Both the position numbers and the translations under genes were made by a program. Below, piece by piece: positions 32,559-51,199 of a DNA stretch of 62,831 bases; position 1 is the stretch's first letter, and the number at the start of each line of letters is the position of its first letter. Below the pieces are notes generated by a model, which did not search any database, was not told where the DNA came from, and saw nothing but the letters and a program-made list of their open reading frames with translations. This stretch comes from an uncultured Candidatus Saccharibacteria bacterium (GTDB lineage Bacteria > Patescibacteriota > Doudnabacteria > UBA920): assembly GCA_964505635.1 (NCBI GenBank), contig CAZDIP010000005.1, positions 793-63,623 of the forward strand. Direction: 5' to 3'.

Positions 32559-33551
32559 ATGCGGAAAATTTTATTACCCCTTAATTCAGGAAAATTTGCT
32601 GTCTTTCTTTTGTCGGCAGTTTTTTTTGCGGGTGCTTTTACCTTGGTTAGGGGGGGAGAGCATTATGCAAAAGCAGCCTACTACAACTCTATTGCTATTA
32701 AAACTTTGGAAGACCCCACTGTTTATATTTTGCAAAATCAATTTTATAAACTTGCACTGCCCAGCGAAAAGATATTTTTATCTTACGGTTTTAATTGGGA
32801 AGATATTAAAATCGTGTCTGCCGCTGAAATGTCTTTGTATAAGAACACCACTTATATCAGATTGGTAAATTCAAAAAGTCTTTACCGGTTGGATTCCGGC
32901 GGAAACAAAAGGCTGTTAAATTCTGATGCCCAAAATTTTCTTTCTTTATCTTCAAATAATGCATTAGTGGTGAGCAGGCTGCATTTTAATTTTTTTCAAA
33001 CAGGATTGGTTTTGACCAAGTCGGAAGCTGAAAAAGATATGCAAAACTTTTTTGTCGGGCCTATTTTGGTTCAAGGTTCCCAAAGTGAGGAGTGCGTGCC
33101 CGATGAGACAGTAGGCGGTAAGTTTGGCTGTTTGGTTTATGAAGCTTATGTTAAGAACGATGTTTCTTTATGCGAAAAAATTTATGACGACAAATGGCAA
33201 AGTTTGTGCCTAAGTTCCTTTATGCCGTCCGGCAGTGACAAATTTTCCAATTGCAAAAAAATTGCAGACGAAAATTACCGGCAAGACTGCTATATAGCAG
33301 TAGCGGTCACAGAAAAAAAATCCTCATACTGCTCGCTTTTAACGAGTGAGCAAAAAAAATCTTTATGTCTGATGAATGTGGGCATAGCGTTAAAAGATTT
33401 CAATGCGTGCAATTATGCTTCGGTAAATGAAAGAGACAAGTGTTATTTTTCTTACGCTCTGATTAATTTAGAAACCCAAGCTTGCGATAACATTGCCAAT
33501 ACCTCTGAGTTCAAGCAAAATTGTTTAAAATTTTCTAGCCAGGCGCAATAG
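32559..33551 (+). CDS. hypothetical signal-anchored protein with C-terminal Cys-pair repeats
   Basis: N-terminal TM helix (FAVFLLSAVFFAGAFTLV). The C-terminal half carries about five C-x10-11-C units. It is the first gene of the same-strand block. Confidence 0.6.
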   Translation: MRKILLPLNSGKFAVFLLSAVFFAGAFTLVRGGEHYAKAAYYNSIAIKTLEDPTVYILQNQFYKLALPSEKIFLSYGFNWEDIKIVSAAEMSLYKNTTYIRLVNSKSLYRLDSGGNKRLLNSDAQNFLSLSSNNALVVSRLHFNFFQTGLVLTKSEAEKDMQNFFVGPILVQGSQSEECVPDETVGGKFGCLVYEAYVKNDVSLCEKIYDDKWQSLCLSSFMPSGSDKFSNCKKIADENYRQDCYIAVAVTEKKSSYCSLLTSEQKKSLCLMNVGIALKDFNACNYASVNERDKCYFSYALINLETQACDNIANTSEFKQNCLKFSSQAQ

Positions 33552-33552
33552 T

Positions 33553-33888
33553 ATGAAAGCAACCTTAAAAACAAAAATTTCTTTCACAATAATTTTTGTA
33601 AGTTTGATTTTCAGCACGGCATCATTACCCAGAAAAACTTACGCTCAGGTGCTGGCCGGAGGAAGATTTTTACCAGGACTGTTCGATATTTTTACCCCCA
33701 GTCCTACCTGCGGGCTTTTGGTAAGCGTAGTAGGGCCAAGACCGGGTTTGTTTGTTTGGGCTCCCACCAGGTACAATTTTTTTAACATGACATTAAATCA
33801 TGTTGGTACGCATGTTTTAGGTAAAAGTGTAATAGCTCCGCCCTGTCCGCCGACTTTAATTCTTTATGGTTCAAGTTTAATCCCTTAA
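33553..33888 (+). CDS. hypothetical small secreted protein (111 aa)
   Basis: The signal peptide ends ...KTYAQV. The mature part is Pro/Gly-rich with 2 Cys. The start abuts the previous stop. Confidence 0.55.
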   Translation: MKATLKTKISFTIIFVSLIFSTASLPRKTYAQVLAGGRFLPGLFDIFTPSPTCGLLVSVVGPRPGLFVWAPTRYNFFNMTLNHVGTHVLGKSVIAPPCPPTLILYGSSLIP

Positions 33889-33898
33889 TAAAAAACAT

Positions 33899-34624
33899 AT
33901 GACAAATCAATCAGCTAATTCCAATCTATCTTTTAACCATTTTGCTTTAATTGCGGGAGTAGCGGTAACTTTGCTAGGGTTTTCCTGGATGAAGAACCCT
34001 GAAATTTTTTCCAGACTTTTTTCCAAAGCCGCACCCTCCAAAATAGAAGATCAGGCAAGAGTTGCTTACTACCCTTATGTGGCAAAAGAAAATTCTGAGC
34101 CTACAGTGGCGGGAGCCAGCACGCAGGCGGCTGGGCCGAGTATTTTAAATGAAGATGGGAGTTTAAGCCCGGTGTTTGATTTTGGCAGCGTGTTGGGCGT
34201 CAATACAGAACAGATTTCAGCCGATGCCGAGAGCATTAAAGTGATTACGGTGGCTGACAGTCCGGCAGGGATTGAGGATTTTATAAAGTCCTCGCAAAAG
34301 GTTGAGTCTGAGCTTATTAATGTCGTCAGTTTTGAGCAAGCTCTTTCTTCGCAGGATCAGCAGCAAATCAACCATGAGGCCGACAAGCTTTCGCAAGTTT
34401 TGGTGAGTTTAAAAACAACGCCGGTACCCGCTTCTTTTGCCAGGCTGCAAAAATTAAAAATACTTCAGTATCAGGTGGCCATACAGATGCTAAAGAATTA
34501 TACCAGCGTAGATAATAATCCCGAGCAGGCCTTAAATGATTTAGGTGTATTTATGGAAAGCCAAAAAATGATGGGGGATGAATTGGTAAGGTTAAACCAA
34601 CAATACAATTTAGAAGCCCGATAA
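33899..34624 (+). CDS. hypothetical membrane-anchored protein
   Basis: 241 aa with a TM helix (FALIAGVAVTLLGF). Tightly packed with the next gene. Confidence 0.55.
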   Translation: MTNQSANSNLSFNHFALIAGVAVTLLGFSWMKNPEIFSRLFSKAAPSKIEDQARVAYYPYVAKENSEPTVAGASTQAAGPSILNEDGSLSPVFDFGSVLGVNTEQISADAESIKVITVADSPAGIEDFIKSSQKVESELINVVSFEQALSSQDQQQINHEADKLSQVLVSLKTTPVPASFARLQKLKILQYQVAIQMLKNYTSVDNNPEQALNDLGVFMESQKMMGDELVRLNQQYNLEAR

Positions 34625-34625
34625 T

Positions 34626-36635
34626 ATGGCCATAAAAATAGGAAGCAAAAAATTTATTTTGGATATAACGGCTAAAATCTTGTTAACCGTTGTAATTTTG
34701 GGTGCACTGCCTCAGACTGTTTTAGCTTTAGCTTTGGATTCTGTGCCTATTGACCACCCGGGTTTAGGACAGGGGGGAGTAGCGGGAGATGCTGCGGCCG
34801 TGGCAGCCAACAGCGCTCTTGGCGTGGCTGAAATACACATAAATACCTGCGACAATCAGGAGTTGGTAAACCAGGGTTTTGACAGTGGTATTAACGCTGC
34901 TTTGCCCGGACTGTCTTTAATTACCGGCGGAGCCGATGAGGCCGCTTATTTGCAAAACAAGATTACAACCTTAGACACGCAATTGGCTTGCAGGGAAATT
35001 GACAAAGTTGCTTTGGAAAAAATTCCTTCCGTCAATTTGCTCGTACAGCAAAAAAAGCAGCAGCTTTTGGATAAAACCGTCGCCTCAATAAAAACTTTGC
35101 AAGCAAGAAAAGACCAGTTAATGGCTCAGCAGCGTGTAGCCAAAGCTGGTTTTTGGAAAGGGGTTTTCGTTAAATTAATGGTTAACCTGTCCAAGTCCAT
35201 GGCTACCAGGCTGGTCAATATGATCATAAATAACTATAAAGTTAACGACTTTGCCCGTTATGCCAGCGTTTTAGGCGCGCAGGTTTATACTACCGATTAC
35301 ATTATGCAAAATGCGGATGTCAGTCGTGACCAGCTCATGATCCGCTCTATGCTTACCAACCCGTTGCTACGCGAAAAAATTCCCAACGCGGCTTTCCAGC
35401 GCGCCTCAGACTCCATGGCCGTAAACAATATTCCGTTTAAAGCTGAAGAAATTAATTACGACGACCCGAAATTCTTTTTAAAATTAAACAAAACTTTTGC
35501 GGCTGACGCCCAGCCGGCAATGGTTAGCGCGGTTTTAAGCGGTAAAGCCAATAGCATTGAGCAAAGCGCCAATACCGCAGCTAAAACGGAAATTAACGCC
35601 AGTAACGGCATAAAATCGCCGCATACCTGCAGCGATGTAGTATCACAGCAAAATTCAATTGACAGGGAGTGGAAGGCGGTAAACGATAAAGTAGCTGACA
35701 GGCAGGCTTTGGTAGATAGTCTGGAAAATGAGTTAAATTTGCTTAAAAATTTTACTGCTTCCAATAAACAAAAAATTTCCCAAGATTTGGCGAAAGCCAG
35801 GACTGATTTAAAACAAGCCCATGCTGAATTGTCGGCTTTGGATGGCAAGTATGACAATAAGGCCGTGGTTAAATTTTGTGACTCGGTAAGCACACCGGGC
35901 AATTTGGTTAATCAGGGCGTAGATAAACTTGTTAATTCGGTGATTAGTAAAGCATCTGACTTTAGCGATAATAATTTATCCAGCGTGCAAAGCACACTCA
36001 CAAATTTAGCTACCACTGTTTTTGAAAATTTGCTTTTCGGCAGAACAGCGCGCTCCAGTATTGTTAATGAATTAACCAATTCAGCTTCTGCGGTCACTGG
36101 GATTGTGGTCAGTGGTTTGAGTGAAGCTTCGGTAAAAAGAAAATTGGATCAAAAGCAGGCGAATATGGAAAAGGGCGTTGATTTTGACTGGGACTTTGGC
36201 AGTAGTGCCTCAGAGTATATTTTAACCTGGTCGGTTGACCAGGCAAAAATAAAAAATGCATCCTATGCGACTATTGCCGGAACCGGGGTTAGTCCTACGC
36301 AACGTTTAAATCTTAGCGGAAGCTTAACCGTTAATTCTTCTTTGCCCGGGAACTATTTTTTGAGAGTGTTCGCGGCAAATAATACTACTGCATTGGTGAC
36401 AGTTTCGGTTACCACAGAAAGTTCTTCTGTGGGTGGTTCTTCAAACACAACTCCAAATGGAACAGGTAATGCCGCGTGCGGAGGTAATTATTCAAGTTTG
36501 CAGGTTTGTGTTCAACAAACCGGAGATCAAAATTATTGTGCTTCTATTTGCTCGCAGGTTCAGGGAGCTTTTACTCAGGCGACTGTAAACATAAGAGGAC
36601 CTAGTGGAATTACACCAAGAGGTCCAGCCAACTGA
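34626..36635 (+). CDS. hypothetical large secreted or anchored protein (669 aa)
   Basis: N-terminal anchor (ILLTVVILGALPQTVLALA), coiled-coil-like middle, beta-rich Ser/Thr/Asn tail and a Cys-rich C-terminus. A terminator follows. Confidence 0.65.
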   Translation: MAIKIGSKKFILDITAKILLTVVILGALPQTVLALALDSVPIDHPGLGQGGVAGDAAAVAANSALGVAEIHINTCDNQELVNQGFDSGINAALPGLSLITGGADEAAYLQNKITTLDTQLACREIDKVALEKIPSVNLLVQQKKQQLLDKTVASIKTLQARKDQLMAQQRVAKAGFWKGVFVKLMVNLSKSMATRLVNMIINNYKVNDFARYASVLGAQVYTTDYIMQNADVSRDQLMIRSMLTNPLLREKIPNAAFQRASDSMAVNNIPFKAEEINYDDPKFFLKLNKTFAADAQPAMVSAVLSGKANSIEQSANTAAKTEINASNGIKSPHTCSDVVSQQNSIDREWKAVNDKVADRQALVDSLENELNLLKNFTASNKQKISQDLAKARTDLKQAHAELSALDGKYDNKAVVKFCDSVSTPGNLVNQGVDKLVNSVISKASDFSDNNLSSVQSTLTNLATTVFENLLFGRTARSSIVNELTNSASAVTGIVVSGLSEASVKRKLDQKQANMEKGVDFDWDFGSSASEYILTWSVDQAKIKNASYATIAGTGVSPTQRLNLSGSLTVNSSLPGNYFLRVFAANNTTALVTVSVTTESSSVGGSSNTTPNGTGNAACGGNYSSLQVCVQQTGDQNYCASICSQVQGAFTQATVNIRGPSGITPRGPAN

Positions 36636-36637
36636 TT

Positions 36638-36664
36638 TAAAAACCCCCTTTTAGGGGGTTTTTA
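36638..36664 (+). terminator. intrinsic terminator splitting the block into two units
   Basis: AAAAACCCCC-tttta-GGGGGTTTTT. Confidence 0.8.
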
Positions 36665-36781
36665 AATATCCTTTTAAGAAGAAAACAAAACTCATTCATT
36701 TAATTGTGGAAAAGTTTTATATTAACCAAGGTATAAAGAAAATGCTCAGGAAATAAAAATTTGGAGTATTTTTTGGTTTTG

Positions 36782-36790
36782 TGGTATAAT
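36782..36790 (+). promoter_or_regulatory. extended -10 promoter element for the second unit
   Basis: TGgTATAAT. Confidence 0.55.
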
Positions 36791-36847
36791 TTGATTAAAG
36801 TTGAAAGAAAAAAGCTCTGAATTTCAGAAAAATTTAAATCTTTTTAA

Positions 36848-39800
36848 TTGTTACAGAAATTAAAAATAAAAATTAGGCAATTAGACATAAAACAAGGCAT
36901 AGGCATGGTGCTTTTGTCTGTTTTTTGTTTTGCTCTTTTGCCGAATTTTACTCAGGCCGCCCAGGGTATTGCCGACGACGGAAAAGACAACAGGACGTTT
37001 GATATAACCGACGTAGTTCTCAGGCCGGAAATTAGTGCTGCTACGGGTTTGGATTGCGGCAATACCCCTCTTAGCCAATTAAAAGGCAATATCCAAAAAA
37101 TTGAACAGTTGTGCAAGTTTAACACAAAAGGATTTTACACTATTGGAAATAATGTTTCAGAAAAGGAAAAATCTTATTTATTAGTTAAATATTCAATTTA
37201 TTTAGAGAAGCCTGGTGAGTTAAACGTAGCACCTAAGTCATTTGGAGATATTTTTAAAGATTTTACTTTTGGCTTGGTAGGCCCAAGCGCACCCAAAGTT
37301 GATTACGTGAAAATTAGTAATGGGTTTTATGGCTTTGGAGTGGTAAATCATCCTATTTTAGGTATAGGTTATGCCGTAGGGTTATCTGGCCAGGAAAAAT
37401 GTGAGAAAAAAGTCTTATCTTACCCTTGGGAAAAGGAAGAGTTTATTAATTCATGTAATTTTGGCCCTCGTTCTAATGGCGGTAAACAAAGTTTTGAACC
37501 CGAAAGTGAAGTAACCTGGAAGACCGGCTCGCCTATAAGAACAGTTTATTTTGCCTATGGCCCGGACAATAATTTTGACGGGCTCGCCATGAATGAAACT
37601 GGTAAAGACTATAAAATGGTTTTTTGGCCTTCTCTTTATTTGAACGTGGGCAATAGAAGTGTGCTGGATAAATATGTTGTTTCAGCTGCGGCAACCGCCG
37701 CCGCCCAAATGAGTACCGGGGTTTCTCAGAAAGCTTTGGATATAGCCAAGCAGGGTGTTCAAAAGGGAGATGATGCTATTAAGGCGTTGGTTGATTTTTT
37801 TAAAGGTTCGGCTCCACAAGCGGCTAGGGCATTTAGTGAAGCGGAGTTGCAGGCACTAGCAAAAGGAGCAATTAATTGGGCGGAAGATATTTTAACATGG
37901 CCTGGGAATGCCCAATCAGTGGAACAGGTGGCCACAAGGGCAGCAGAACTTGCGGCTAAAGAAGCCATTAAAAATGGGGCAAAGGTAGAGCAGGCAACAG
38001 CTTTAATAGGTAATATTACTAAGGATTTAGCAGCAACTGCAGGCATGGATGCAGCTGCTGCAACAAACCTAGCCGAACAGGCAGCGGTTAAAGCTGGTAT
38101 TGCTGCGGGCGGCACGGTTGAAGCCGCAGCTGGTGGGGCTAGGGCTGCTTCTAAATTTGGTAAGATAATTAAATTTGCTGGACCGGCTGCTCAAGTTATT
38201 GGACCGCTTTTTAATGGCGTGCAGCTGACTTTTAGTATTTTTAGTTTTTCTAAAGAACACTTTGATATTTATGATTCAAAAAATACTTTAACTTTGAGGT
38301 TGTACGCTACAGAAGCAGAGGCACAAAGCCATGCTAATGACCCAGCCCCGGTTGATGCATCTAATATGGGTTCAACCCCAGGTACTTCCAGTGTAGGTAA
38401 GAGCGGTTCCCCTTTATTAGGTTTTATAAACGAGCTAATTGCTATTTTAACCGCGTTTGTGCAGGAGCTTATTTATCTTTTGTTCACGGCCTTGGTGGTG
38501 CCTTTAATTGAAGCCATGCTTTCTATTCGCACCTATACCGACCAGTTTGCCGCAGTAATTTATCCGGGTTGGATAGTAGTAAGGAATGTGTGCAATATTT
38601 TATTTATTATTGCAATCATGGCCATTGCCATGGGTACTTTGTTGAGGTTGGACGGCTATCAGTTTAGAAGCATGCTGATAAATTTAATTGTCGCGGCCTT
38701 GCTCGTAAATTTTAGCTTGTTTGTAGGACAGGCGGTGCTCGGCGTGGCAGATACGGTGCAAAGCCAATTTTTGCCGAATAACAAGGCGGTTATAAGAAGC
38801 CTGGGAGCAGATTTGGTGCTTAATAATCGCGAGGCATTTTCCCGCTTTGCCCGTGGGGATTTTGCCAGCCAAGGTTATTTTTCTCAAACCGTGGTACCGC
38901 TTTTTATGCTTGTTGTCAGCGCGGGAACTTTTATGGTGTTTTTGGCCATTGCCGCGTTTTTGGCTATTCGGGTGGTTATGCTTTGGATACTCTTAATGGT
39001 TTCGCCCGTTGCTTACGCGGCAGGAGCTTTGCCTTCCACAGCGCATTATAGGGAAGAATGGTGGGAAACATTTTTGAAGTACGCGTTTTTTACGCCGGTT
39101 ATGGCTTTTTGTTTGAATATGGCGGCCGTGATTGTTAACGCGCAAAAGACTAATCCGGTTTTAAGGCAAATTAGCAGCGCGGAATTTAGCGATAATAATC
39201 TTTCTTCTTTTGTCTTTAACGTGGCCAGCAATATTTTACTGTTAATATTTTTGTTGGTAGCTTTGCAGGCAGCTGAAAAGTTTAGCATTATTGGCGCTGG
39301 TAAAATTACCGACTTTGCCAAGGGCGGCATGTTTGCGTTGCCAAAAATTGCTGCTGGTTACGGCGCGAGAAAATGGAATGAATTTACGGCAAATACTGTC
39401 AGAGGACATGGCCGCAAAGTTAGTTTTGGTAGGGCCGTGGCTTCCGCGGCTTTAAACCCGGTAGCTTTTGCAAAGGCGTGGGCAAAAGAAAGGGAAAAGA
39501 AAGATCATCGCGCTCAGGAAAAAGCCGAACTTGCCGCTTTGGAGGTCGTACAGCAAAGATTTGCCAGCCCAAAAACTTTTTTGTTTGGAGGGGGGAAAAT
39601 TAAGCAGCATATTTTGGCTCACGACAAGCACGAAGAAGATGATGAAGCTAAAAATTTTGCCAACATGTCCCGTGAGAATGTGGCGCGTAATGCGGCTGAA
39701 ATTTCTACGCTTGGTTTTAGCGAAGACGATATGGCAAGCAAGCGTGGGGTAATTAAGCTGGCTATGCACAAAGGTTATATTGACGACGTAGTAGAAGAGG

Positions 39801-41140
39801 CTTATCAGACAAAGGAAGGCAGGCAGTTGCTTGAAAAAATGAAAAAGTACGGTTTGGACGACGATGATTTTGAAGAAAAGGAAATAACAGACGAGAATGG
39901 CAACAAAGTAAAAGTTAAAAGCGCAATATACAGCCATAAAACCAGGAGGGCTTTGTATAAAGCCATGTTCGGTTGGGTTGGCGATGATGAACATGGGCAC
40001 TTTAAAGACCATGCTGCTGGCAGGCTTATTACCGAAGAAGGTGAAGAAGAAGGTATGAATACCGGGCATTTGGAGTATATGACCGATATGTATTTTGACG
40101 TGGCGAGCGGGGAATATAAATTTTATAAATTGCGAAAAGTGGTTGATCCGACAACTGGCAAAGAAATGTTTGTGAGTGATGGTGAAACTGTAATGGCGGG
40201 TGAAGAAATTGGTAAGAAAGATTCCCGTACTCAAGCCAGAATTGCCTGGCATGCTCTTATTAGCTCAAACGGACGGGATTTTAGTAGGGCAATATTCAGA
40301 AAAGTGGCTAAGGCATTTAGGGAAAACCCAGGTTTTATGCAGGAGCGCCAAACCAATAAATTATTTACCGGTAAATCCAGTGGAGATGTGGTGGTGGCAG
40401 CTCAGAAAGCATTTAAGGATAAAAAAGTCCTTAATGTCGATCCTAATTTTGCAAATGTTATTAAAATGATGATGGATGAAGACGAGGGTGCTACCGCAAC
40501 TATGATTCAAAGGTTTGTAAATGATACAAGCACGGCCGCGATCGCTGATTTAATGAAAAAGGGTTTTACTGTAAACGGAGAAAAAATTAATTTTAAAAAC
40601 ACCTCAGTCGGAGGGATTAGCGGAACAGTAACCGAGCAATTAAAGGAGGGTAAGGCTATTAATACCCAGATAGCGGGTGCTTCCGCAGAGGTGCTAAAAA
40701 ATTATGATTCTGTAGACCGGCTGCCTGATTTTAACGTGGTCGTTAATGGTTTGGTGGCAACGGGAAAAGTTAATAGGGGAGAGGCTGTTAAAGTAACTTT
40801 TAGTTACTTACAACAGTTGTCTCAAGAAATTTTGACAAAACGCAAAATTGATACCGCAGACGTAATTCAAAAGCCGTCTACCAGATACGCAAATGTTGAA
40901 GTTTTACTCTCAGGGCAGCAGTTAAGTAAGTTTTTGGATGTAATCAAGGATGCCACTAACAGGGGTCTTGCCGACAGTACGAGGTTTGCGTCAGACACCG
41001 ATAAAACAAACGCAATCAAGAAAACTATCGAAGAAGATTTAAATGATAAGGATGTTAAAAAAAGTTTGGGCAACCATGATCTTACCTCAATATTTAATTC
41101 AGAAGAGTTTGCAAAAGAAATTTTAAACGCCTTAAAATAA
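36848..41140 (+). CDS. giant VirB6/TrbL-like polytopic membrane protein (1430 aa)
   Basis: Signal sequence (the more likely start is the ATG at 36905, MVLLSVFCFALL...AAQG). The layout is about 500 aa outside, then 6-8 TM helices at about aa 520-830 in a TrbL/VirB6-like arrangement, then about 600 aa of charged cytoplasmic tail. The gene lies in a VirB4 cluster. Confidence 0.6.
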   Translation: MLQKLKIKIRQLDIKQGIGMVLLSVFCFALLPNFTQAAQGIADDGKDNRTFDITDVVLRPEISAATGLDCGNTPLSQLKGNIQKIEQLCKFNTKGFYTIGNNVSEKEKSYLLVKYSIYLEKPGELNVAPKSFGDIFKDFTFGLVGPSAPKVDYVKISNGFYGFGVVNHPILGIGYAVGLSGQEKCEKKVLSYPWEKEEFINSCNFGPRSNGGKQSFEPESEVTWKTGSPIRTVYFAYGPDNNFDGLAMNETGKDYKMVFWPSLYLNVGNRSVLDKYVVSAAATAAAQMSTGVSQKALDIAKQGVQKGDDAIKALVDFFKGSAPQAARAFSEAELQALAKGAINWAEDILTWPGNAQSVEQVATRAAELAAKEAIKNGAKVEQATALIGNITKDLAATAGMDAAAATNLAEQAAVKAGIAAGGTVEAAAGGARAASKFGKIIKFAGPAAQVIGPLFNGVQLTFSIFSFSKEHFDIYDSKNTLTLRLYATEAEAQSHANDPAPVDASNMGSTPGTSSVGKSGSPLLGFINELIAILTAFVQELIYLLFTALVVPLIEAMLSIRTYTDQFAAVIYPGWIVVRNVCNILFIIAIMAIAMGTLLRLDGYQFRSMLINLIVAALLVNFSLFVGQAVLGVADTVQSQFLPNNKAVIRSLGADLVLNNREAFSRFARGDFASQGYFSQTVVPLFMLVVSAGTFMVFLAIAAFLAIRVVMLWILLMVSPVAYAAGALPSTAHYREEWWETFLKYAFFTPVMAFCLNMAAVIVNAQKTNPVLRQISSAEFSDNNLSSFVFNVASNILLLIFLLVALQAAEKFSIIGAGKITDFAKGGMFALPKIAAGYGARKWNEFTANTVRGHGRKVSFGRAVASAALNPVAFAKAWAKEREKKDHRAQEKAELAALEVVQQRFASPKTFLFGGGKIKQHILAHDKHEEDDEAKNFANMSRENVARNAAEISTLGFSEDDMASKRGVIKLAMHKGYIDDVVEEAYQTKEGRQLLEKMKKYGLDDDDFEEKEITDENGNKVKVKSAIYSHKTRRALYKAMFGWVGDDEHGHFKDHAAGRLITEEGEEEGMNTGHLEYMTDMYFDVASGEYKFYKLRKVVDPTTGKEMFVSDGETVMAGEEIGKKDSRTQARIAWHALISSNGRDFSRAIFRKVAKAFRENPGFMQERQTNKLFTGKSSGDVVVAAQKAFKDKKVLNVDPNFANVIKMMMDEDEGATATMIQRFVNDTSTAAIADLMKKGFTVNGEKINFKNTSVGGISGTVTEQLKEGKAINTQIAGASAEVLKNYDSVDRLPDFNVVVNGLVATGKVNRGEAVKVTFSYLQQLSQEILTKRKIDTADVIQKPSTRYANVEVLLSGQQLSKFLDVIKDATNRGLADSTRFASDTDKTNAIKKTIEEDLNDKDVKKSLGNHDLTSIFNSEEFAKEILNALK

Positions 41141-43286: not shown

Positions 43287-43727
43287 ATGCAATTTCCAGT
43301 CCCTCAGTTTACAGAGGTAGAAGACAAAATTATCGGACCTTTGACTCTCAAACAGTTTGGAGTAATTTTTGCTGCCGGAACTGTAATTTTTTTGGCTTAC
43401 TCAATAAGTAAAAGTGTGCCTATTTTAATTTTTTTCTGCGTACTTTTTGGATTGCCAGCTTTGGGTATTGCTTTCGGAAAAATTAACGGGAGGCCGATTT
43501 ATAATAGTTTTGGTTTTGCCGTAAATTTTATTTTAAGTCCCAAAATTTATGTCTTCCATAAAGAGGCCTACTTTTTGTCTGTTAATAAGCAGATAGAAGA
43601 CAAAACCAAAATTTTTAAAACTCCCCAGGCGCAAACTATTATAGATCCGCAGTTAAAGATTAAAGAAATTAACAAAATACTGCAGCAGCAGGCTTTGGCC
43701 GAAAGGGAGCTCTTAAAGCGAAAATAA
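43287..43727 (+). CDS. PrgI-family (VirB3-like) T4SS membrane protein
   Basis: MQFPVPQFTEVEDKIIGPLTLKQFGVIFAAG plus two TM helices, the hallmark N-terminus of the PrgI family. It lies upstream of VirB4. Confidence 0.7.
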   Translation: MQFPVPQFTEVEDKIIGPLTLKQFGVIFAAGTVIFLAYSISKSVPILIFFCVLFGLPALGIAFGKINGRPIYNSFGFAVNFILSPKIYVFHKEAYFLSVNKQIEDKTKIFKTPQAQTIIDPQLKIKEINKILQQQALAERELLKRK

Positions 43728-43730
43728 CAA

Positions 43731-44423
43731 ATGCAATTTGAAATGCGAAATAAAAAAAAGCCTCAAGGCAAAGCCACTCAGAGTTTTTTGCGCATGGCTG
43801 AAATTAAGAATGACACTGTAGTTTTGGACGATGGGAGTATTCGCGCGGTTGTTGCCGTATCCTCTACTAATTTTGACCTAAAGAGCCAAGAAGAACAGGA
43901 TTCCATTATTTTTAATTTTCAGCGTTTTTTAAATTCCCTGGATTTTCCGATTCAAATTTTAATGCAAAGCCGAAAAATAGAAATAGGGAATTATATTGAA
44001 AAATTGAAAAGGCTGGCCGAAAAACAAACTAACGAACTACTTAGAGTCCAGACCAATGAGTACGTCGAATTTATTAACCGCCTGGTGGAAAATGCCAGCA
44101 TTATGAATAAACATTTTTATATTATTATACCATTGGGCCAAAATATTTTTCCAAAAGCCTCAGGATTTTTTTCCAGGGTATTTGGTAATGGCAGAGCCAG
44201 GGAAGCGGCCCAAAGAATAGAAAATTTTGAAAGAGCAAAGGAGCAAATAGACAATAGGGTTAATGCGGTAATTTCCAATTTATCGGGGGTGGGGGTCAGA
44301 GGGGCGAGGCTTAAAACAGAAGAAATTATCCAGCTTTATTATAATTCCTATAATTTTGATAATGCTCCCGTAATAGATCCTTCTAAACTTGATGAAATGA
44401 AAGTTTTTGAAGAAAAAAAATAA
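43731..44423 (+). CDS. hypothetical protein resembling the non-ATPase N-terminal domain of Tn916-Orf16/TcpF-type VirB4
   Basis: TQSFLRMAEIKNDTVVLDDGSIRAVVAVSSTNFDLKSQEEQDSIIFNFQRFLNSLDFPIQILMQSRK follows the pattern seen at the N-terminus of Gram-positive VirB4 proteins (recalled, not searched). Confidence 0.55.
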   Translation: MQFEMRNKKKPQGKATQSFLRMAEIKNDTVVLDDGSIRAVVAVSSTNFDLKSQEEQDSIIFNFQRFLNSLDFPIQILMQSRKIEIGNYIEKLKRLAEKQTNELLRVQTNEYVEFINRLVENASIMNKHFYIIIPLGQNIFPKASGFFSRVFGNGRAREAAQRIENFERAKEQIDNRVNAVISNLSGVGVRGARLKTEEIIQLYYNSYNFDNAPVIDPSKLDEMKVFEEKK

Positions 44424-44456: not shown

Positions 44457-46304
44457 ATGAGTTTATTTGGCCCAAAAAGCGAAGAAGAAATTTTAGAAAA
44501 AAAGAAGCATATTGAAGAGTTGGAAGCCGAGCAAAACATCAATAAACGTTTGGGTGATTTAGAGCAGACTTATAAAGAGGGTCTGACCACTTTAAAGGAT
44601 TTGCTTGCGCCCGCTGCTTTGAAGTTTCAAAGCAGCTATTTTGAGCTAAATGGCAAATATGCGCGGAGTTTTTTTGTTTTAACTTACCCCCGTTTTCTTT
44701 CATCCAACTGGCTGTCCTTTATTATTCAGGCTGAAGGCGCCTTGGATCTTTCCATGTTTATTTATCCGATTGACAGTGAAACTATATTGAAAAAGCTGAA
44801 AAGTAAAGTCGGTGAAATTGGTTCGCAAATGTCTATTAACCAGGAAAAGGGTCAGGTTCGCGACCCGATGCTCGAAACCGCGTATAAGGATGTGGAAGGA
44901 CTTAGGGATGCTCTTATGCAGGGGACGGAAAAGTATTTTCGTTTGGCTCTTTATTTTACTATTTATACAGATGATTTAAAGGAGCTGGAGAAAAATTCCA
45001 CAACTTTGGAAAGCGCATTGGGCGCCAAGTTAGTACTAACCAAACGGGCTTTAATGCAGACGCAGAGCGGTTTTAATTCCACTTTACCTTTAGGACTTGA
45101 TGAACTTGATGTGGGAAACAATATGAATACCAGCCCGCTTTCCAGCTGTTTTCCTTTTGTCTCTTCTGATTTGTCTTCCAACGACGGTATTCTTTACGGC
45201 ATAAACCGTCATAACAACAGCTTGATTTTATTTGACCGTTTCGCCATGGAAAATGCCAATTCAGTGGTTTTTGCCAAGTCAGGAGCCGGAAAGTCTTATG
45301 CGGTTAAGTTGGAAGTTTTACGCAGTTTAATGATAGGGACCGAGGTTATAATTGTTGATCCAGAAAACGAATACAAGCATTTGGCTGACGCGGTGGGTGG
45401 AACGTACTTAAATGTATCTTTGAATTCCGACTCCAGAATTAATCCGTTTGATTTGCCAATTGCCATAGAAGGCGAAGATACGGCCGATGTTTTGCGCAGC
45501 AGTGTGGTTAATCTGCTTGGTCTTTTTAATTTAATGCTCGGCAAGCTTAATCCGACCGAAGAAGCCATAATGGATAAGGCAATTTGGCAGACTTATGCCA
45601 AAAAAGACATTACCCCCCAAATGCAGGATTTTAAGACGGCAGAATATCCTACCATGAACGATTTAATTGAAATTTTGTCCAGTATTGTCGGGGCGGAAAG
45701 TTTGGCTCAACGTTTGACTAAATTTACGGAAGGCACTTTTGCGGGGCTCTTTAACCAGCCGACTAACGTGGTTTTAAATAACCAGCTGGTGGTTTTTTCA
45801 ATCAGAGATTTGGAGGATCAACTAAGGCCCATAGCTATGTATATTATTTTGGGCTATATATGGAATATTGTACGCAGTGAGTTGAAAAAACGCATTTTGG
45901 TTTTAGACGAGGCCTGGATTATGATGCAGCATGAAGATTCCGCCCGGTTCGTTTTTGGTATTGCCAAACGCGCCCGCAAATATTATTTAGGACTTTCAAC
46001 AATAACCCAGGATGTGGCGGATTTTATGGCAAGCCCTTATGGCAAGCCTATTGTGACCAACTCCTCAATTCAATTGCTTTTAAAGCAATCGCCTGCCGCC
46101 ATAAATATTATTGCCGAAACCTTCTTTTTAACTGAAGGGGAGAAATACCTACTTTTGGAAAGCGAGGTTGGTGAAGGTATCTTTTTTGCAGGACTTAACC
46201 ACGCCGCCATCAAAATTTACGCTTCTTATGTGGAAGATCAAATTATTACCACTGATCCCAAACAGCTTTTGGAAATCCAGGATAGTCAAGAAAAATTAAG
46301 TTAG
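44457..46304 (+). CDS. VirB4-family T4SS ATPase
   Basis: LAPAALKFQSSYFELNGKYARSFFVLTYPRFLSSNWL, Walker A FAKSGAGKSYAVK, IIVDPENEY, Walker B RILVLDEAW and STITQD. Confidence 0.9.
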   Translation: MSLFGPKSEEEILEKKKHIEELEAEQNINKRLGDLEQTYKEGLTTLKDLLAPAALKFQSSYFELNGKYARSFFVLTYPRFLSSNWLSFIIQAEGALDLSMFIYPIDSETILKKLKSKVGEIGSQMSINQEKGQVRDPMLETAYKDVEGLRDALMQGTEKYFRLALYFTIYTDDLKELEKNSTTLESALGAKLVLTKRALMQTQSGFNSTLPLGLDELDVGNNMNTSPLSSCFPFVSSDLSSNDGILYGINRHNNSLILFDRFAMENANSVVFAKSGAGKSYAVKLEVLRSLMIGTEVIIVDPENEYKHLADAVGGTYLNVSLNSDSRINPFDLPIAIEGEDTADVLRSSVVNLLGLFNLMLGKLNPTEEAIMDKAIWQTYAKKDITPQMQDFKTAEYPTMNDLIEILSSIVGAESLAQRLTKFTEGTFAGLFNQPTNVVLNNQLVVFSIRDLEDQLRPIAMYIILGYIWNIVRSELKKRILVLDEAWIMMQHEDSARFVFGIAKRARKYYLGLSTITQDVADFMASPYGKPIVTNSSIQLLLKQSPAAINIIAETFFLTEGEKYLLLESEVGEGIFFAGLNHAAIKIYASYVEDQIITTDPKQLLEIQDSQEKLS

Positions 46305-46384
46305 CATAAAAAATATAACCATAACAAAAGCACAAACAATACGCTGTTTGTAATAGTTATGGTTATTGTTTGTAATTATTAGGC

Positions 46385-49300
46385 ATGCCACAGGATCTGG
46401 AAGATTTAAACCAAGTTGATTCAGTATCAGGAGGGAATTTTAGTTTTGACCCAGCTGGCTTTAAAAAGCCCGCTGTTTTAATAGTAGGCGGTGACGGAAA
46501 AAATATTGTGGGTGAATTTGTCAGGGTTTTTGCAATTTTTGTGGAAGGCAAAAAGTCCGGGGGCTCAGATGAATTTAATATTGGAGTCGGCTCTAAAGTT
46601 AGGGTTTTAGGTCAGGGCCTCTCAAACTTTGACTATATTACAGTAAGGAGTGAGCAAAAAAAACAGGCGGTTATTGATGAAGTTTTTTTTGCAGATAACC
46701 AGATAACTTTTGTCATCCCCAGCATTTTTGTTAAAATTTTCGGCAAAGATGAATTTTTATGGTTGGAATTCGGACAAAAAGCTGATCCTCGCAAGGCTTT
46801 TCGGCTTTCTCGTTATTTAATTTTTGAGGGGGCAACAGCTCGGGAATCATCTGACGAAAAGAAACAAAGCGTAAAACAACAAAATTTAACAAGCGATGAA
46901 AAACCCAAGGCAATCAAGAGCCAACAAACGGGAGTGGGAGGCGTTGTTGAAGGCGCATTAAGCGATGTTGCTCAAGGGTTTTTGGGCAAATCTGGTTTTG
47001 AGCGCAATATACAGCAAAACACACAACAAAATAAAACCGTATCACGACAGCCGAATTTAAAGAAAATCTTAAATGCAGGTATTGAATCTGTTGATAATTT
47101 ACCTCAAGACGATTCATCGGCTTTTGAAACTAATTTAAAAGCATCAGTAGACGCTGAAATTAATAGCCAAGCAACGCGAACCGAAACAACAGAGTCGCTC
47201 AGAGTTGGTTCTGATTTTACTCCCATTGTTTCTCAAAACGTCAATTTGGAACAAGCTTCTGTAAATACTGGCTCTGCTGGTATTCCTCCATTAGGTCAGA
47301 ATGTTTCAGTTGAAACCCAGATAAAGGCTAAAAATAATTTAGCGACGCTGATCGAAGTTCCCACGTCCGCTTCGCAGATTGACGCGGAGGTACAAGGGCA
47401 ATCTATTGGGCAAGCGTCATTTAATAGTAGGCCCGCAATTCAGGCTACAGTAGACGGTCCCATTTCCCAGGTTCCAAACGTTTTTGTGTCAAAAGGGGCG
47501 GGTAGTTTAGATGGCCAGCTAACTTCATCTTCAAAATTAAGTGCAAGCGGAAAGGTTGCTGAACAACCAATTCAGGCTGGGTTGGGTGTTAATATGAATA
47601 TGCTGCCTATGGAAGTTAAAGCCGAACAGGCAGCAGAGCCAGAGTTAGAAGAAAACATTTCTGGTCAAATTTCCGATTTGTCCCAAAAAGATTCCCTAGC
47701 CGCAGCTTTAGACGGGCCTCAAAAGGGTTTTCGCACAGATTCAGAACAAGTATCTTTAAAGACTCCCAGCGCCAATCAAGATCAGCCCCAAGCCCACAAA
47801 CATAATAAACCGCCAGTTGATAAAAAATCAGAATCGCCTGACTACCCAAAAGAAAAAGCCGAGGAAAAAACGTCTCAAAATAAGACTTTAAACGGTGTCC
47901 AGAATAAACAAAAGGAAAACAATCAGGTTGGTAAGAAGACAGATTTAGACCCCGAGACAGAGGAAAAAAAATCAGATAAAAATTCATTACCAAAAACAGG
48001 TATTGAAGTGCCTGGCCCTGAGTCTGTTTTAGAATCCAGAGATCTGGGTGTTAAAATGCGAAACCAGCAGCCTGGTAAGGATTTTGCCGGACTCAAAAAC
48101 AGGCTTCAGGCTAATGATATAGCGTTTAAAGGTAAAAGCCGGCCATTTAGAGTTGTTTCCGGAAAGAAAATCACGGATAAAGAATTTTTAGGCGGAGCAG
48201 CTTCAAAGCCTAAACCTTTGAATTTAGATAGGCAACCGGTCAAAACTAAATCAGATACGACCGATATAGGACAAACCACTCCTAACAATAAAGAGTTGGT
48301 TGAAAATAAACAAGATAAACCAGGGATTTCTGAAAGGGAAAAACCAAAACAAGATAATTCTGAACTTGAGGATAGAAATTTGTTAACTGACCCAAGAACT
48401 ACCGGTGAATTAATGAGCCAGGCTTTGAAGGGTGATTTATCTGCAGACCGTGCTGTCTTGCCGACCATTCGGAGAATAATTGAGAAAAAAAACTTCTTGG
48501 CCGGCAAAGGTCTTTCTCAGGCCTCGGCTAAAATTTGGCATTATGGATTTGGAATCTCTGCCGGAACTTTTTTTAGCGGTTTTGACTTTTTCTTGGGCGC
48601 TTTGGTTATGGATGCGTATTGGATTTTTGGACATAGGCAGAATCCCAAACTTTTTCCAATGAAAACTTGGCAAAAAGTTCTTACTATTTTTGCCAATGTC
48701 ATGCCCTTTATTTATGTAATTTTAACCTTGGTTTTAATTATTATGGCGGGTTGCAATTCACCCGAACCCATTAAATCGGTTTTTATTAAAGCAACGGGAG
48801 GAAGCATAAGTGAATCTGTTTCTGGCGGTGGCATCTGCACATATTTTAATTACAAAAATTTGGAATCGGTTATTACCGGCAGGGTGGAAAATATTACCCC
48901 TTCCGGCCTTTTGTCTACCGGCTCCTGGACGGCAGCCATAAATTCCAGTGTCCAAAAATATCCGAATGTGCCTGGTTGCATGCTAAGAGTTGTGATTCAA
49001 AAAGAGTCGGCTGGCCAAGCCGATGTGATAGGCTGTGATTGTGCTTACAACGGACAGCCTCAATTCTGTCCAAATAATAAACAGAGTAATAAATATTTTC
49101 CGGGGTTTCCTTTTGATTGGGAACATTGTTCTTACGGCGTTGGCTTGACTCAGTGGACAATTTTTCAAAGGCGTTATGCTAGTATTCCAAATGATTTTCG
49201 CCGTTGGCAGTCTGCCAGCTTTCCGAGCAGAACCCCTTTTGGCACCCAGTTTTATGGCGTGGATGACTTTTTAAATCCCCAATTAAGTTTGGATCTAACG

Positions 49301-49447
49301 GCGGAAAAATTTAGCAGAGATTTGGCAAAAAATCCTGGTGATATCGCGGGAGCCTTTGCCGCTTATGTGGGGGCCAGCAGCTCTCAACAGCGGTTTGTCC
49401 AGGAAAGAATGGCTTTATATAATATGTGTATAAGTAATACCCAATAA
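46385..49447 (+). CDS. large membrane protein with C-terminal SLT-type lytic transglycosylase domain (VirB1/PrgK-like role)
   Basis: The C-terminus carries VIQKESAGQ (catalytic E-S), GVGLTQ (GLMQ-like) and AFAAYVGA (AYNAG-like). Upstream are about 550 aa of low-complexity Q/S/K/E/P sequence and TM helices at about aa 710-790. Confidence 0.75.
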   Translation: MPQDLEDLNQVDSVSGGNFSFDPAGFKKPAVLIVGGDGKNIVGEFVRVFAIFVEGKKSGGSDEFNIGVGSKVRVLGQGLSNFDYITVRSEQKKQAVIDEVFFADNQITFVIPSIFVKIFGKDEFLWLEFGQKADPRKAFRLSRYLIFEGATARESSDEKKQSVKQQNLTSDEKPKAIKSQQTGVGGVVEGALSDVAQGFLGKSGFERNIQQNTQQNKTVSRQPNLKKILNAGIESVDNLPQDDSSAFETNLKASVDAEINSQATRTETTESLRVGSDFTPIVSQNVNLEQASVNTGSAGIPPLGQNVSVETQIKAKNNLATLIEVPTSASQIDAEVQGQSIGQASFNSRPAIQATVDGPISQVPNVFVSKGAGSLDGQLTSSSKLSASGKVAEQPIQAGLGVNMNMLPMEVKAEQAAEPELEENISGQISDLSQKDSLAAALDGPQKGFRTDSEQVSLKTPSANQDQPQAHKHNKPPVDKKSESPDYPKEKAEEKTSQNKTLNGVQNKQKENNQVGKKTDLDPETEEKKSDKNSLPKTGIEVPGPESVLESRDLGVKMRNQQPGKDFAGLKNRLQANDIAFKGKSRPFRVVSGKKITDKEFLGGAASKPKPLNLDRQPVKTKSDTTDIGQTTPNNKELVENKQDKPGISEREKPKQDNSELEDRNLLTDPRTTGELMSQALKGDLSADRAVLPTIRRIIEKKNFLAGKGLSQASAKIWHYGFGISAGTFFSGFDFFLGALVMDAYWIFGHRQNPKLFPMKTWQKVLTIFANVMPFIYVILTLVLIIMAGCNSPEPIKSVFIKATGGSISESVSGGGICTYFNYKNLESVITGRVENITPSGLLSTGSWTAAINSSVQKYPNVPGCMLRVVIQKESAGQADVIGCDCAYNGQPQFCPNNKQSNKYFPGFPFDWEHCSYGVGLTQWTIFQRRYASIPNDFRRWQSASFPSRTPFGTQFYGVDDFLNPQLSLDLTAEKFSRDLAKNPGDIAGAFAAYVGASSSQQRFVQERMALYNMCISNTQ

Positions 49448-49450
49448 GTT

Positions 49451-50017
49451 ATGAAAAGTTATCAGAAAATTTTGCTTTACGGACTGGGGTTTTTTGTAGT
49501 CGCTGTTTTATTTTTTACTATACTCCAAGGGTTTTTAAAACAACCCGGTAATAATAATGCAAAAAATCAAAATCAGGAGAATGATACCGTAGAATTATCA
49601 GACTATATTTTAAGCACACAGGAGGAGTCAACTGTTAAAGAATTTGTAAAAAACTTTGTAAATTTGTATAATAGTTACAGCTACAAGAATTTTAGCAATT
49701 TGACAGCTCTAGGGGACTATCAAACTTTAGAATTTCAGAAAAAAACCGCTGAATTTGTTGCTGAATTGGAGAATTCTGTACCATCTGGCTTTTTGCAGAC
49801 TACAGTTTCCGACCTTAATACCTTTAAATATTCGTACCAAAATTTAAGCTTATTAACAGCAACGCTTAAGGCGCATGTTACAGAAGAAATTCAAAATTAC
49901 AACCAAGTATCACCGAGATCTGCACAAAATACAAAACAATATTTAATTACGGTAAGAATTGAATTAATTAAATCAGCTAATGTTTGGCTGGTAAATGATA
50001 TAAAAATACAAAAGTAA
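49451..50017 (+). CDS. hypothetical membrane-anchored protein (possible VirB8/NTF2-like component)
   Basis: N-terminal TM helix plus a globular domain of about 140 aa. Its size, topology and position resemble VirB8/PrgL-like proteins. This is inference only. Confidence 0.45.
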   Translation: MKSYQKILLYGLGFFVVAVLFFTILQGFLKQPGNNNAKNQNQENDTVELSDYILSTQEESTVKEFVKNFVNLYNSYSYKNFSNLTALGDYQTLEFQKKTAEFVAELENSVPSGFLQTTVSDLNTFKYSYQNLSLLTATLKAHVTEEIQNYNQVSPRSAQNTKQYLITVRIELIKSANVWLVNDIKIQK

Positions 50018-50026
50018 AATAAAAAT

Positions 50027-51199
50027 ATGAATAAAAAAGCCATTGCAATACTCGGAGCCATTTTTTTATTAATTCTGGGAACTTTAGGGTTTCTGCTTTA
50101 TTCGAAATATTTTTCTTCGTCCCAGCCACAACAGCCTTCGGCTCAAAATTTAACTCAACCCGAGGGCGATGACATAAAAATTGACAATCAAACAGCCGGC
50201 CCTGACAGTCAGAGTTCGGACAACGGAGATAGCCAGAACCAGCCGCAGGCTTATAAACTCATAGACGACCAGGTTATTTCTCCGATTTTGTTTTATAATG
50301 GCACGGGTATAACTTATTTTAACCGCCAAGGTCAGCTATTTCAGGCAACTTTGGAAGATACTAATAACCAGACTATTGTTGCGTCAAAAAAGATTCTGGA
50401 GATTCCCTTAAGAACAAATATTGAAAAAATTCTTTGGCCTGCTAAAGGCGATAATTTTATTGCTGAATTTGAAGTGCAAGGGAAAAAGGGTTGGAGTTTT
50501 TTTGATAGCAAAAACAGCCTATATGTGGATTTGCCAGCCCAGATGGGGTCTGTATCGTGGTTGCCAAGTTCGGAAAAAATTTATTATACCTGGACTTATG
50601 CAGATTCTACAAGAAACGACACCGTTAACCTTTCTGACCCGGACGGCAAGAATTATCAAAAAGTTGGTGAAATCTGGCATAAAAATGCCAAAGTTACTGT
50701 TTCCCCAGACGGTTTAAGTATATTGTATTTTAAGGAAATCAATTTGGACTTTACAAATGCAATAGGTTTAACGACTCCGGATGGAAAAGTTTGGAAGACA
50801 TTAATTAGCGAGGGCTATAATTATGGGGTTTTATGGAGCCCGGATAGTAAAAAGTTTTTATTTGGCAAAAAGAATCCTACTAACCAGCAGTATCAGCTGT
50901 GGTACTATGACCTATCTTTGGGAGAAGTGAAAAATTTAGGATTATTTACCACTCCAGACAAAGCAGTCTGGGATAAAGACAGTACCACAATTTATGCGGC
51001 TGTGCCTGCTCTGGGCAGCCAGTCTAATTTAACAGTCGACTCATTTTTTAAATTTAATACCTCTACTTTTGAGAAAAAAGAGTATGTTCTCCCGGGACAG
51101 ACATTAGATGGCGGAGACTTATTTTTAAATCTAAATTCCACCAAGCTATTTTTTAAGAACGCTCAGGATGGAGGGTTATACTATTTGGACTTAAATTAA
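50027..51199 (+). CDS. membrane-anchored beta-propeller (TolB/PD40-like repeat) protein
   Basis: Repeated WxPDG/S units: VSPDGLSILYF, WSPDSKKFLF and WLPSSEKIYYTW. Confidence 0.6.
   Translation: MNKKAIAILGAIFLLILGTLGFLLYSKYFSSSQPQQPSAQNLTQPEGDDIKIDNQTAGPDSQSSDNGDSQNQPQAYKLIDDQVISPILFYNGTGITYFNRQGQLFQATLEDTNNQTIVASKKILEIPLRTNIEKILWPAKGDNFIAEFEVQGKKGWSFFDSKNSLYVDLPAQMGSVSWLPSSEKIYYTWTYADSTRNDTVNLSDPDGKNYQKVGEIWHKNAKVTVSPDGLSILYFKEINLDFTNAIGLTTPDGKVWKTLISEGYNYGVLWSPDSKKFLFGKKNPTNQQYQLWYYDLSLGEVKNLGLFTTPDKAVWDKDSTTIYAAVPALGSQSNLTVDSFFKFNTSTFEKKEYVLPGQTLDGGDLFLNLNSTKLFFKNAQDGGLYYLDLN

Follow-up and report, generated by a model that had tools for sequence, protein, structure and literature searches.

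The closest described counterparts of the locus reported here are the chromosomal type IV secretion systems (T4SS) of the Patescibacteria, which are monoderm bacteria (PMC12102498). In Southlakia epibionticum (S. epibionticum), a member of the Saccharibacteria, transposon sequencing (Tn-seq) showed that epibiotic growth requires the homologous gene cluster (Wang et al. 2023, PMC10633639). Its genes are arranged as VirB6-PrgI-TrsD-VirB4-large protein-lysozyme, a pilin array accompanies them, and comF is a neighbour (PMC10633639). The VirB2-like pilin array of the Saccharibacteria is itself essential (PMC10633639). The S. epibionticum T4SS has been likened to Gram-positive conjugative T4SSs, and it lacks recognisable coupling and relaxase proteins (PMC10633639). 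A survey of 3,035 Patescibacteria genomes found VirB4 in 2,417 of them, nearly all in one clade within MPF-FATA (Quinonero-Coronel et al. 2025, PMC12102498). In these systems TrsD is the commonest partner, PrgI, VirB6 and VirB2-like proteins are widespread, and VirB8 is rarely detected; VirB2-like pilin genes near virB4 are frequent, in 1135 assemblies, and not universal (PMC12102498). The genomic context of virB4 includes ksgA and, in class ABY1, comF, recG and radA (PMC12102498). It was proposed that these systems import DNA, or macromolecules of other kinds, from the host (PMC12102498), and a 2025 FEMS review repeated this proposal (PMC12857230). Here, we analyzed a 62.8-kb stretch of DNA, nearly a whole contig and hereafter called the window, and in it the block [32559-51199] on the + strand. 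The block is very probably a chromosomal, non-conjugative T4SS of the Patescibacteria clade in a Candidatus Doudnabacteria genome. Within this identity, its probable function is to move macromolecules at the interface with the host, without conjugating DNA. An earlier reading of the letters alone, the sequence-only reading, correctly identified a relaxase-less chromosomal T4SS, but the novelty that it implied does not hold, since earlier papers had described the system, the missing relaxase and the chromosomal setting, as well as both of the functions proposed in that reading, DNA uptake and a cell-cell interface (PMC10633639, PMC12102498, PMC12857230). The system is already known from papers of 2023-2025, and the details below are increments to it.

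The block consists of 13 open reading frames (ORFs), labelled g1 to g13 in order from 5' to 3', in a listing of non-overlapping ORFs of at least 60 amino acids. All of them are intact, tightly packed and co-directional on the + strand. The sequence-only reading had counted 14; the packing and the common direction stand, but a 14th ORF was not found. The intergenic gaps are 0-80 nt long, with the sole exception of a gap of 212 nt [36636-36847], which holds no ORF of 35 amino acids or more. An intrinsic-terminator-like hairpin [36635-36667] is found there, with a perfect 15-bp stem, AAAAACCCCC-TTTT-GGGGGTTTTT, and a T-run on both strands, and it closes the upstream unit. Further along, on the + strand, an extended -10 element, TGGTATAAT, can be read at [36782-36790]; as a consensus match only, it is a candidate promoter of the unit g5-g13, which runs from VirB6 to a propeller protein. 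Because the hairpin and the extended -10 both lie inside this gap, the layout in two units, g1-g4 and then g5-g13, is real. The sequence-only reading had proposed the same division, with the terminator at 36638-36664 and the same extended -10, and it had described the composition of the block as similar to that of the rest of the window, in agreement with a G+C content of 0.37-0.44 in the block and of 0.34-0.45 outside it. For comparison with other genomes, a scan of one genome per species gave 331 loci, of which 80 were examined; the 10-kb flanks and the contig ends limit the counts given below.

The motor of the system is g10 [44457-46304], a VirB4 ATPase of 615 amino acids. It matches the Pfam families P-loop_TraG (E=6e-26) and AAA_10, and it scores 356.9 bits against a cutoff of 325 with the NCBIfam equivalog conju_CD1110, the conjugative VirB4 of C. 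difficile. The motifs GAGKS, DPENEY and LDEAW are all present, so that the protein has the Walker A and B motifs of a VirB4 ATPase. Directly upstream, g9 [43731-44423] encodes a TrsD-type protein of 230 amino acids, which matches the NCBIfam models TrsD (E=1.5e-6) and VirB4_plasma (E=4.9e-10). When both proteins are aligned to the conju_CD1110 model, g9 covers positions 18-136 and g10 covers positions 176-728. As these alignments are complementary, the pair resembles a VirB4 whose N-terminal domain is a separate gene, and g9 looks like, in effect, a separately encoded VirB4 N-terminal domain. The gene that adjoins this pair, g8 [43287-43727], encodes a PrgI/VirB3-like protein of 146 amino acids with two transmembrane helices, and it exceeds the gathering score of Pfam PrgI (E=2.5e-9).

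The VirB6-like polytopic membrane protein expected of a monoderm MPF-FATA T4SS is g5 [36848-41140], an extended VirB6/TrbL-like protein of 1430 amino acids. It can be described as composed of an extracytoplasmic N-domain of about 500 residues, a transmembrane core at about residues [510-830], and a hydrophilic C-domain of about 600 residues, with at least 6 transmembrane segments in all. Pfam TrbL matches the copy in the window below threshold (E=0.0014-0.0044), while it matches the conserved membrane core in 28 of 36 orthologues, with a best E of 4.5e-7. A profile search of the PDB gave TrwI/VirB6 as the sole match, which was not significant (E=0.63). The N-domain is unique to this genome (homologue in 0 of 54 loci), and the C-domain has a homologue in 8. 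These assignments bear out what the sequence-only reading had proposed from motifs and topology, namely a giant VirB6/TrbL-like protein at 36848, a PrgI/VirB3-like protein at 43287, a product resembling a VirB4 N-domain, now placed at 43731, and a VirB4 at 44457 with the same three motifs.

The wall hydrolase of the system is g11 [46385-49447], a VirB1-like protein of 1020 amino acids. It has an N-terminal β-rich domain, a low-complexity region of about 550 residues, a membrane segment at about residues [715-790], and an SLT-type lytic transglycosylase domain that makes up the last 170 residues or so (DNA [48935-49444]). The topology and the hydrophobic segment [715-745] were judged by eye from the sequence, and the segment [772-790] comes from sequence analysis. 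The full-length protein has no Pfam match, and direct sequence and profile searches of the PDB with the SLT domain gave nothing meaningful. The C-terminal 170 residues match Pfam SLT below threshold (E=0.0059). The domain is assigned because Pfam SLT matches all 11 of the 11 orthologous domains, with a best E of 3.3e-7, and because the motifs E-S, GLTQ and Y-x-G are invariant in their alignment. The peptidoglycan hydrolase that had been placed at 46385 from the letters alone is confirmed, for the C-terminal domain only. Among the loci, g11 is variable in length and domain content, and just 10 of the 80 have the SLT domain. Some 4.5-7 kb upstream of the block, the window encodes a DUF11-repeat surface protein [25079-26908] on the + strand and a LysM-LysM-CHAP wall hydrolase [27027-27989] on the - strand. 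In Gram-positive VirB1-like proteins, SLT and CHAP domains are often combined. Because this pairing is common, the LysM-LysM-CHAP enzyme might complement the SLT domain of g11.

Next to g11, g12 [49451-50017] encodes a bitopic protein of 188 amino acids with an N-terminal transmembrane helix followed by an NTF2-like domain. No sequence-level relatives were found beyond its own small family, the profile search of the PDB included, and it is through structure comparison alone that the VirB8-like NTF2 fold was recognized. The AlphaFold2 (AF2) model has a predicted local distance difference test (pLDDT) score of 85, and the top Foldseek matches in the PDB are all VirB8 homologues (E=4e-5 to 1e-3): CagV, TcpC, the VirB8 proteins of Rickettsia and Bartonella, TraH of pIP501, PrgL of pCF10 and the VirB8 of R388. 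The size and topology had already suggested a VirB8-like protein at 49451 to the sequence-only reading, with which the model and the Foldseek search agree. g12 occurs in 11 loci, which include all 10 that bear the SLT domain. All five monoderm core subunits, that is the VirB1-like, VirB3, VirB4, VirB6 and VirB8-like proteins, are encoded in the block.

The same set is found in MPF-FATA elements, such as pIP501/pGO1, pCF10 (PrgH-L) and CTn CD1110, with PrgI, TrsD/TraD, VirB4, VirB6, an SLT hydrolase and a VirB8-like protein in the same relative order and with no outer-membrane core proteins; the VirB4 described here passes the equivalog model of the last of them. The gene order in pIP501/pGO1 is TraC-TraD-TraE-(TraF/G)-TraH. 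The likeness in order is supported by the structural matches of g12 to TraH and PrgL, and by a cluster on the Geobacillus subterraneus megaplasmid pGspE55-1 (NZ_AP022558.1, 29385-57936; locus L081), which encodes PrgI, TrsD, VirB4, a protein of about 900 amino acids and a wall hydrolase. Unlike the block, that cluster is plasmid-borne, its hydrolase is an M23 peptidase, Tad/Flp pilus genes adjoin it, and its other neighbours are annotated differently. The nearest plasmid-borne TrsD homologues are 25-29% identical to g9 and lie on 45 Firmicutes plasmids, of which 41 are typed as non-mobilizable; these clusters may be another relaxase-less branch of MPF-FATA. In contrast to the MPF-FATA elements, the locus in the window has no relaxase, no coupling protein (T4CP), no oriT and no PrgB-type adhesin, it is chromosomally fixed and vertically inherited, and its accessory genes are unrelated to theirs. 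From its similarity and synteny, the VirB4 of the block would belong to a Patescibacteria-specific clade that descended from monoderm MPF-FATA conjugation machinery.

Pfam scans, which outside the block covered the other ORFs of at least 100 amino acids lying outside any longer ORF, detected no relaxase, coupling protein (VirD4/TcpA), VirB11, replication or integration functions in the 62.8-kb window, as the sequence-only reading had stated. None of the marks of a conjugative element, a relaxase, a T4CP or an integrase, is found in the window. As the window is nearly the whole contig of 63,623 bp, the absence of coupling protein and relaxase holds for the window and does not extend to the genome. 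A functional conjugation system, or one exporting chromosomal DNA, could be completed by a coupling protein and by an unknown or divergent relaxase encoded elsewhere, given that the window is only about 63 kb of the genome, that g10 passes a curated model of conjugative ATPases, and that VirD4-like genes are distant from virB4 in most Patescibacteria, as t4cp often is in true conjugative systems (PMC12102498). We consider this very unlikely. Relaxases occur in just 103 of the 3,035 Patescibacteria genomes, rarely near virB4, and the distal T4CP homologue of S. epibionticum is non-essential, whereas its T4SS is essential (PMC12102498). Moreover, the window contains neither an oriT-like nor a mobility gene, and a VirB4 more conserved than RadA, as described next, suits a core cellular function better than transfer.

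The homologues of this VirB4 number in the thousands. The best 120 are 84-94% identical to it, and the named ones among them come from metagenome-assembled genomes (MAGs) of Patescibacteria and Candidatus Doudnabacteria, as do the 80 syntenic loci; the proposal of an epibiotic small-genome bacterium, made from the letters alone, fits this origin. In most of the 80 loci a common order recurs, [g3-g4]-VirB6-g6-g7-PrgI-TrsD-VirB4-[g11-like]-[g12]-g13-radA-recG(-), and where the 10-kb flank suffices, uvrD/ksgA (7 loci) and DUF192 (4 loci) are found upstream. TrsD is present in 77 of the 80 loci, g13 in 72, PrgI in 71, radA in 63, g7 in 60, recG in 56 and VirB6 in 54. The identity of VirB4 to the window protein is 64-94% over the 80 loci, with a median of 79% in the 78 that have a full ORF match. 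Across the 45 genomes in which radA and recG are both complete, VirB4 has a median identity of 79% to its counterpart in the window, compared with 56% for RadA and 48% for RecG. As VirB4 is more conserved than RadA, the locus is vertically inherited. The fixed position, the ultra-conserved motor and the hypervariable surface parts together indicate a vertically inherited apparatus of functional importance, exposed to something outside the cell that changes fast. The same data bear on whether the block is the decayed, non-functional remnant of an integrative conjugative element, stripped of its mobility genes. Its T4SS genes do descend from conjugation machinery, and tRNA genes lie a few kb downstream, but all 13 ORFs are intact, the chromosomal position is the same in most of the 80 species genomes, VirB4 is more strongly constrained than the core genes beside it, and the composition matches that of the rest of the window. 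Such decay is hardly credible, being effectively refuted by synteny and conservation. A recently acquired conjugative element, against which the sequence-only reading had already argued, is likewise made unlikely by the synteny across the 80 loci, the native G+C content and the lack of mobility genes.

The flanks of the block are chromosomal core genes. Upstream lie ksgA (rsmA), at 30858, and a DUF192 gene. Downstream, radA [51297-52619] is co-directional with the block and starts 97 nt past g13; it matches the NCBIfam RadA equivalog with 541 bits, and it is context and not a proven part of the T4SS. It is followed by recG [52656-54779] on the - strand, a convergent neighbour with the Pfam RecG wedge and helicase domains, which is also context, as is a comF-family gene [58098-58838] on the - strand (NCBIfam comF, E=1.1e-31). 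rsmA and radA, the two flanking genes named from the letters alone, were thus both confirmed by hidden Markov models (HMMs). A comF gene also adjoins the T4SS of S. epibionticum (SEML1_0021, K02242). Outside the block, every ORF with a Pfam match is an ordinary chromosomal or housekeeping gene, and a few ORFs are unmatched. These genes include those for translation (L20, IF3, ArgRS, IleRS, SmpB and KsgA), for repair and recombination (RecO, UvrD, RadA, RecG, RecX and ComF), and others (ClpB, an ECF sigma factor, transporters and the LysM-CHAP hydrolase). Beside recG, a gene [54891-55361] on the - strand encodes a protein of 156 amino acids with two transmembrane segments and a weak DUF5673 match; it adjoins recG in 45 of the 80 Doudnabacteria loci and probably lies outside the T4SS.

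This neighbourhood raises the question of whether the same apparatus works inward, as a DNA importer of the ComB or Ced/Ted kind that delivers host or environmental DNA to ComF, RadA and RecG for recombination or nucleotide salvage. The hypothesis has been raised explicitly (PMC12102498), and several features of the locus agree with it: relaxase and T4CP were not found, radA follows the last T4SS gene co-directionally in 63 of the 80 loci, with recG present in 56, comF, recX, recO and uvrD lie within the same 62-kb window, comF is adjacent in S. epibionticum too, and g10 weakly matches CedB (E=3e-9). The Helicobacter pylori (H. pylori) ComB and archaeal Ced/Ted systems are, like the block, VirB4-based, devoid of relaxase and coupling protein, and at the service of their own cell, and the block is likewise linked to recombination and competence genes. 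However, the proximity of genes does not establish a shared function; both radA and recG are housekeeping genes, and in a very small genome such an arrangement can be retained by chance. CedB scores far under its cutoff, whereas the conjugative VirB4 models match g10 much more strongly, and neither ComEC nor a DNA-binding receptor is encoded in the locus. ComB is a diderm system with ComB7, ComB9 and ComB10, of which none was found here, and no VirB7/9/10-like protein or ComEC was detected among the window ORFs scanned. Furthermore, S. epibionticum takes up DNA by type IV pili and ComEC, and its comEC can be deleted while its T4SS is essential (PMC10633639, PMC12857230). Moreover, no Patescibacteria T4SS is known to take up DNA. 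On balance, an inward DNA importer is an unlikely, though not a negligible, alternative to macromolecule transport at the host interface.

The lineage-specific parts of the T4SS are the soluble proteins g6 and g7, the TolB-like g13, and the upstream operon g1-g4 of secreted or anchored proteins. g6 [41141-42196], which sits between VirB6 and g7, encodes a soluble protein of 351 amino acids with no transmembrane segment; it was found in 59 loci with an iterated HMM, and Pfam and PDB profile searches gave no match. g7 [42209-43255] encodes a soluble protein of 348 amino acids, in which, according to the alignment, the N-terminal helix motif and the C-terminal helical domain are conserved and are joined by a disordered, Pro-rich linker. 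The iterated HMM finds it in 66 loci, against the 60 of the gene-order count, and in Pfam it has a sub-threshold match to DUF7275 only (E=2e-4). g13 [50027-51199] encodes a membrane-anchored TolB-like β-propeller of 390 amino acids, with a transmembrane helix at residues [6-24] and a profile match to TolB in the PDB (E=4.8e-9). It lies directly before radA in 72 of the 80 loci, and no other accessory gene of the locus is as conserved.

The upstream unit opens with g1 [32559-33551], which encodes a protein of 330 amino acids. Its hydrophobic N-terminus is a signal or an anchor, and a repeat region rich in Cys has these residues at regular spacing. Neither Pfam nor NCBIfam gave a match for g1. 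g2 [33553-33888] encodes a small secreted protein of 111 amino acids, which has no Pfam match at E≤0.1. One close relative (locus L082) keeps the order g1-g2, with homologues in the equivalent positions that are 54% identical to g1 and 60% identical to g2. g3 [33899-34624] encodes a protein of 241 amino acids anchored by an N-terminal helix, and its homologues precede g4/VirB6 in 18 Doudnabacteria loci. No family could be assigned to g1-g3 with Pfam or NCBIfam, and the NCBIfam scans of g1-g7 gave no assignment. The last gene of the unit, g4 [34626-36635], encodes a surface protein of 669 amino acids, which in the AF2 model (pLDDT 81) consists of an N-terminal anchor, a long α-helical bundle with helices of up to 67 residues, and a C-terminal immunoglobulin (Ig)-like β-sandwich at residues [518-596]. 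A Foldseek search with this model found no PDB match with E<0.001, and g4 has no structural relative in the PDB by this measure. Its family is small: among 1.84 billion proteins, only 141 representative clusters belong to it, and g4 is found upstream of VirB6 in 33 loci. A weak profile match to a MACPF protein (E=0.012) had suggested a perforin-like pore-former; this lead was dropped because the model is an all-helical bundle with an Ig-like domain and the Foldseek search gave no significant match.

In comparison with the S. epibionticum cluster (SEML1_0004-0019), the block is likewise chromosomal and of monoderm type, with the order VirB6-PrgI-TrsD-VirB4-large membrane protein/wall hydrolase. 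With the Patescibacteria-clade T4SS in general it shares the position of TrsD next to VirB4, a cluster without relaxase or T4CP, a very conserved VirB4, and the neighbours ksgA and, as in ABY1, radA, recG and comF. However, there are several differences from S. epibionticum. Two extra soluble genes, g6 and g7, lie between VirB6 and PrgI, and the clear VirB8-like g12 contrasts with the lack of any detected VirB8 in S. epibionticum. The TolB-like g13 is found in place of a PEGA-domain exported protein, and the hydrolase is an SLT domain fused to a membrane protein instead of a triple lysozyme-like protein. For the upstream operon g1-g4, no counterpart has been described. Finally, searches of the window and of the 10-kb surroundings of VirB4 gave no VirB2-like pilin array. 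In the window, Pfam (E≤0.1) detected no VirB2-like pilin in g1-g4, and the gaps hold no small ORF with two transmembrane segments. g2, considered as a VirB2 pilin, is an unlikely one, as it has a single hydrophobic segment only. Across the 80 loci, the 10-kb flanks of VirB4 likewise gave no VirB2-like pilin once the PrgI and DUF5673-like families were set aside.

Based on these comparisons, a model of the apparatus can be proposed. Hexamers of VirB4/TrsD would dock on a core of PrgI and VirB6 and power a membrane translocon, for which the VirB8-like g12 would act as a scaffold of the channel. The SLT domain of g11 would open the epibiont's own wall, and the fast-evolving extracytoplasmic parts (the VirB6 N-domain, g4 and g11), together with the products of g1-g4, would contact the host envelope. 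g6, g7 and the 600-residue C-domain of VirB6 are candidates for substrate recruitment, a role that normally belongs to the coupling protein. Such a machine would move macromolecules between epibiont and host instead of conjugating DNA. Several points weigh against this reading. The pilin array, which is essential in Saccharibacteria, is the part that could not be found, and for this reason the extracellular part may be built differently. The essentiality and the host-interface function are extrapolated, by analogy, from one species of Saccharibacteria. Similarity and synteny are the grounds for the placement in the Patescibacteria clade. For the window proteins themselves, the Pfam matches behind the VirB6 and SLT calls are below threshold. 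A more specific and rather less likely proposal than DNA import in general is that Doudnabacteria run a T4SS without VirB2 pilins, in which g4, the hypervariable VirB6 ectodomain and the TolB-like propeller form an epibiont-to-host conduit of a new type that imports host DNA or nucleotides into the RadA/RecG/ComF machinery.

A few other features of the window and of the related loci were noted. A PaaX/Cas2-like small protein is encoded at [18684-19292] on the + strand, and a 174-amino-acid ORF that is similar to it by eye lies between g4 and VirB6 in another locus (L004, 1684-2208); these proteins possibly represent a family of regulators that changes position among these genomes. The T4SS operon of a further Doudnabacteria locus (JACRDK010000010.1; L013) has paralogous ORFs of 123 and 131 amino acids, at 7881-8252 and 9591-9986, which flank PrgI-TrsD; they resemble proteins of the four-helix-bundle, 23S-rRNA-intervening-sequence type and are absent from the window. 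Three ORF-poor stretches of 550-780 nt, [10325-11104], [11505-12097] and [58839-59388], lie beside the tmRNA gene and upstream of clpB. No Rfam match at the gathering threshold was found in them, and they may hold unannotated RNAs or regulatory regions. A tRNA gene with the anticodon CCA, which reads UGG (Trp), is found at [10230-10324] on the - strand and has a long variable arm of 21 nt and the discriminator U73. Among the other three tRNAs of the window, it aligns most closely with the two tRNA-Ser. Bacterial tRNAs of class II architecture, with its long variable arm, are as a rule those for Ser, Leu and Tyr. Judging from its sequence, this tRNA could be derived from tRNA-Ser or be an unusual tRNA-Trp of the lineage; a metagenome scan for its relatives returned unrelated sequences only.

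The locus reveals no new principle. As an example from the Doudnabacteria it is clean and complete: each of the five core subunits has an assigned gene, even the VirB8-like one that sequence surveys of the phylum rarely detect, and its VirB4 is more conserved than RadA. Modest novelty lies in a VirB8-like subunit, supported by structure, that is found together with the SLT domain in a subgroup of the Doudnabacteria; in the anchored TolB-like propeller as the best conserved of the accessory genes; in the helical surface proteins of the g4 family, which are without a structural relative; and in an apparent lack of VirB2-like pilins near virB4 in Doudnabacteria. g4, g6, g7 and g13 make up a short list of conserved accessory candidates for substrate receptors or host-contact parts. 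The Patescibacteria represent a large share of uncultivated bacterial diversity, and theirs is the first T4SS that was shown to be required by its own carrier for survival.

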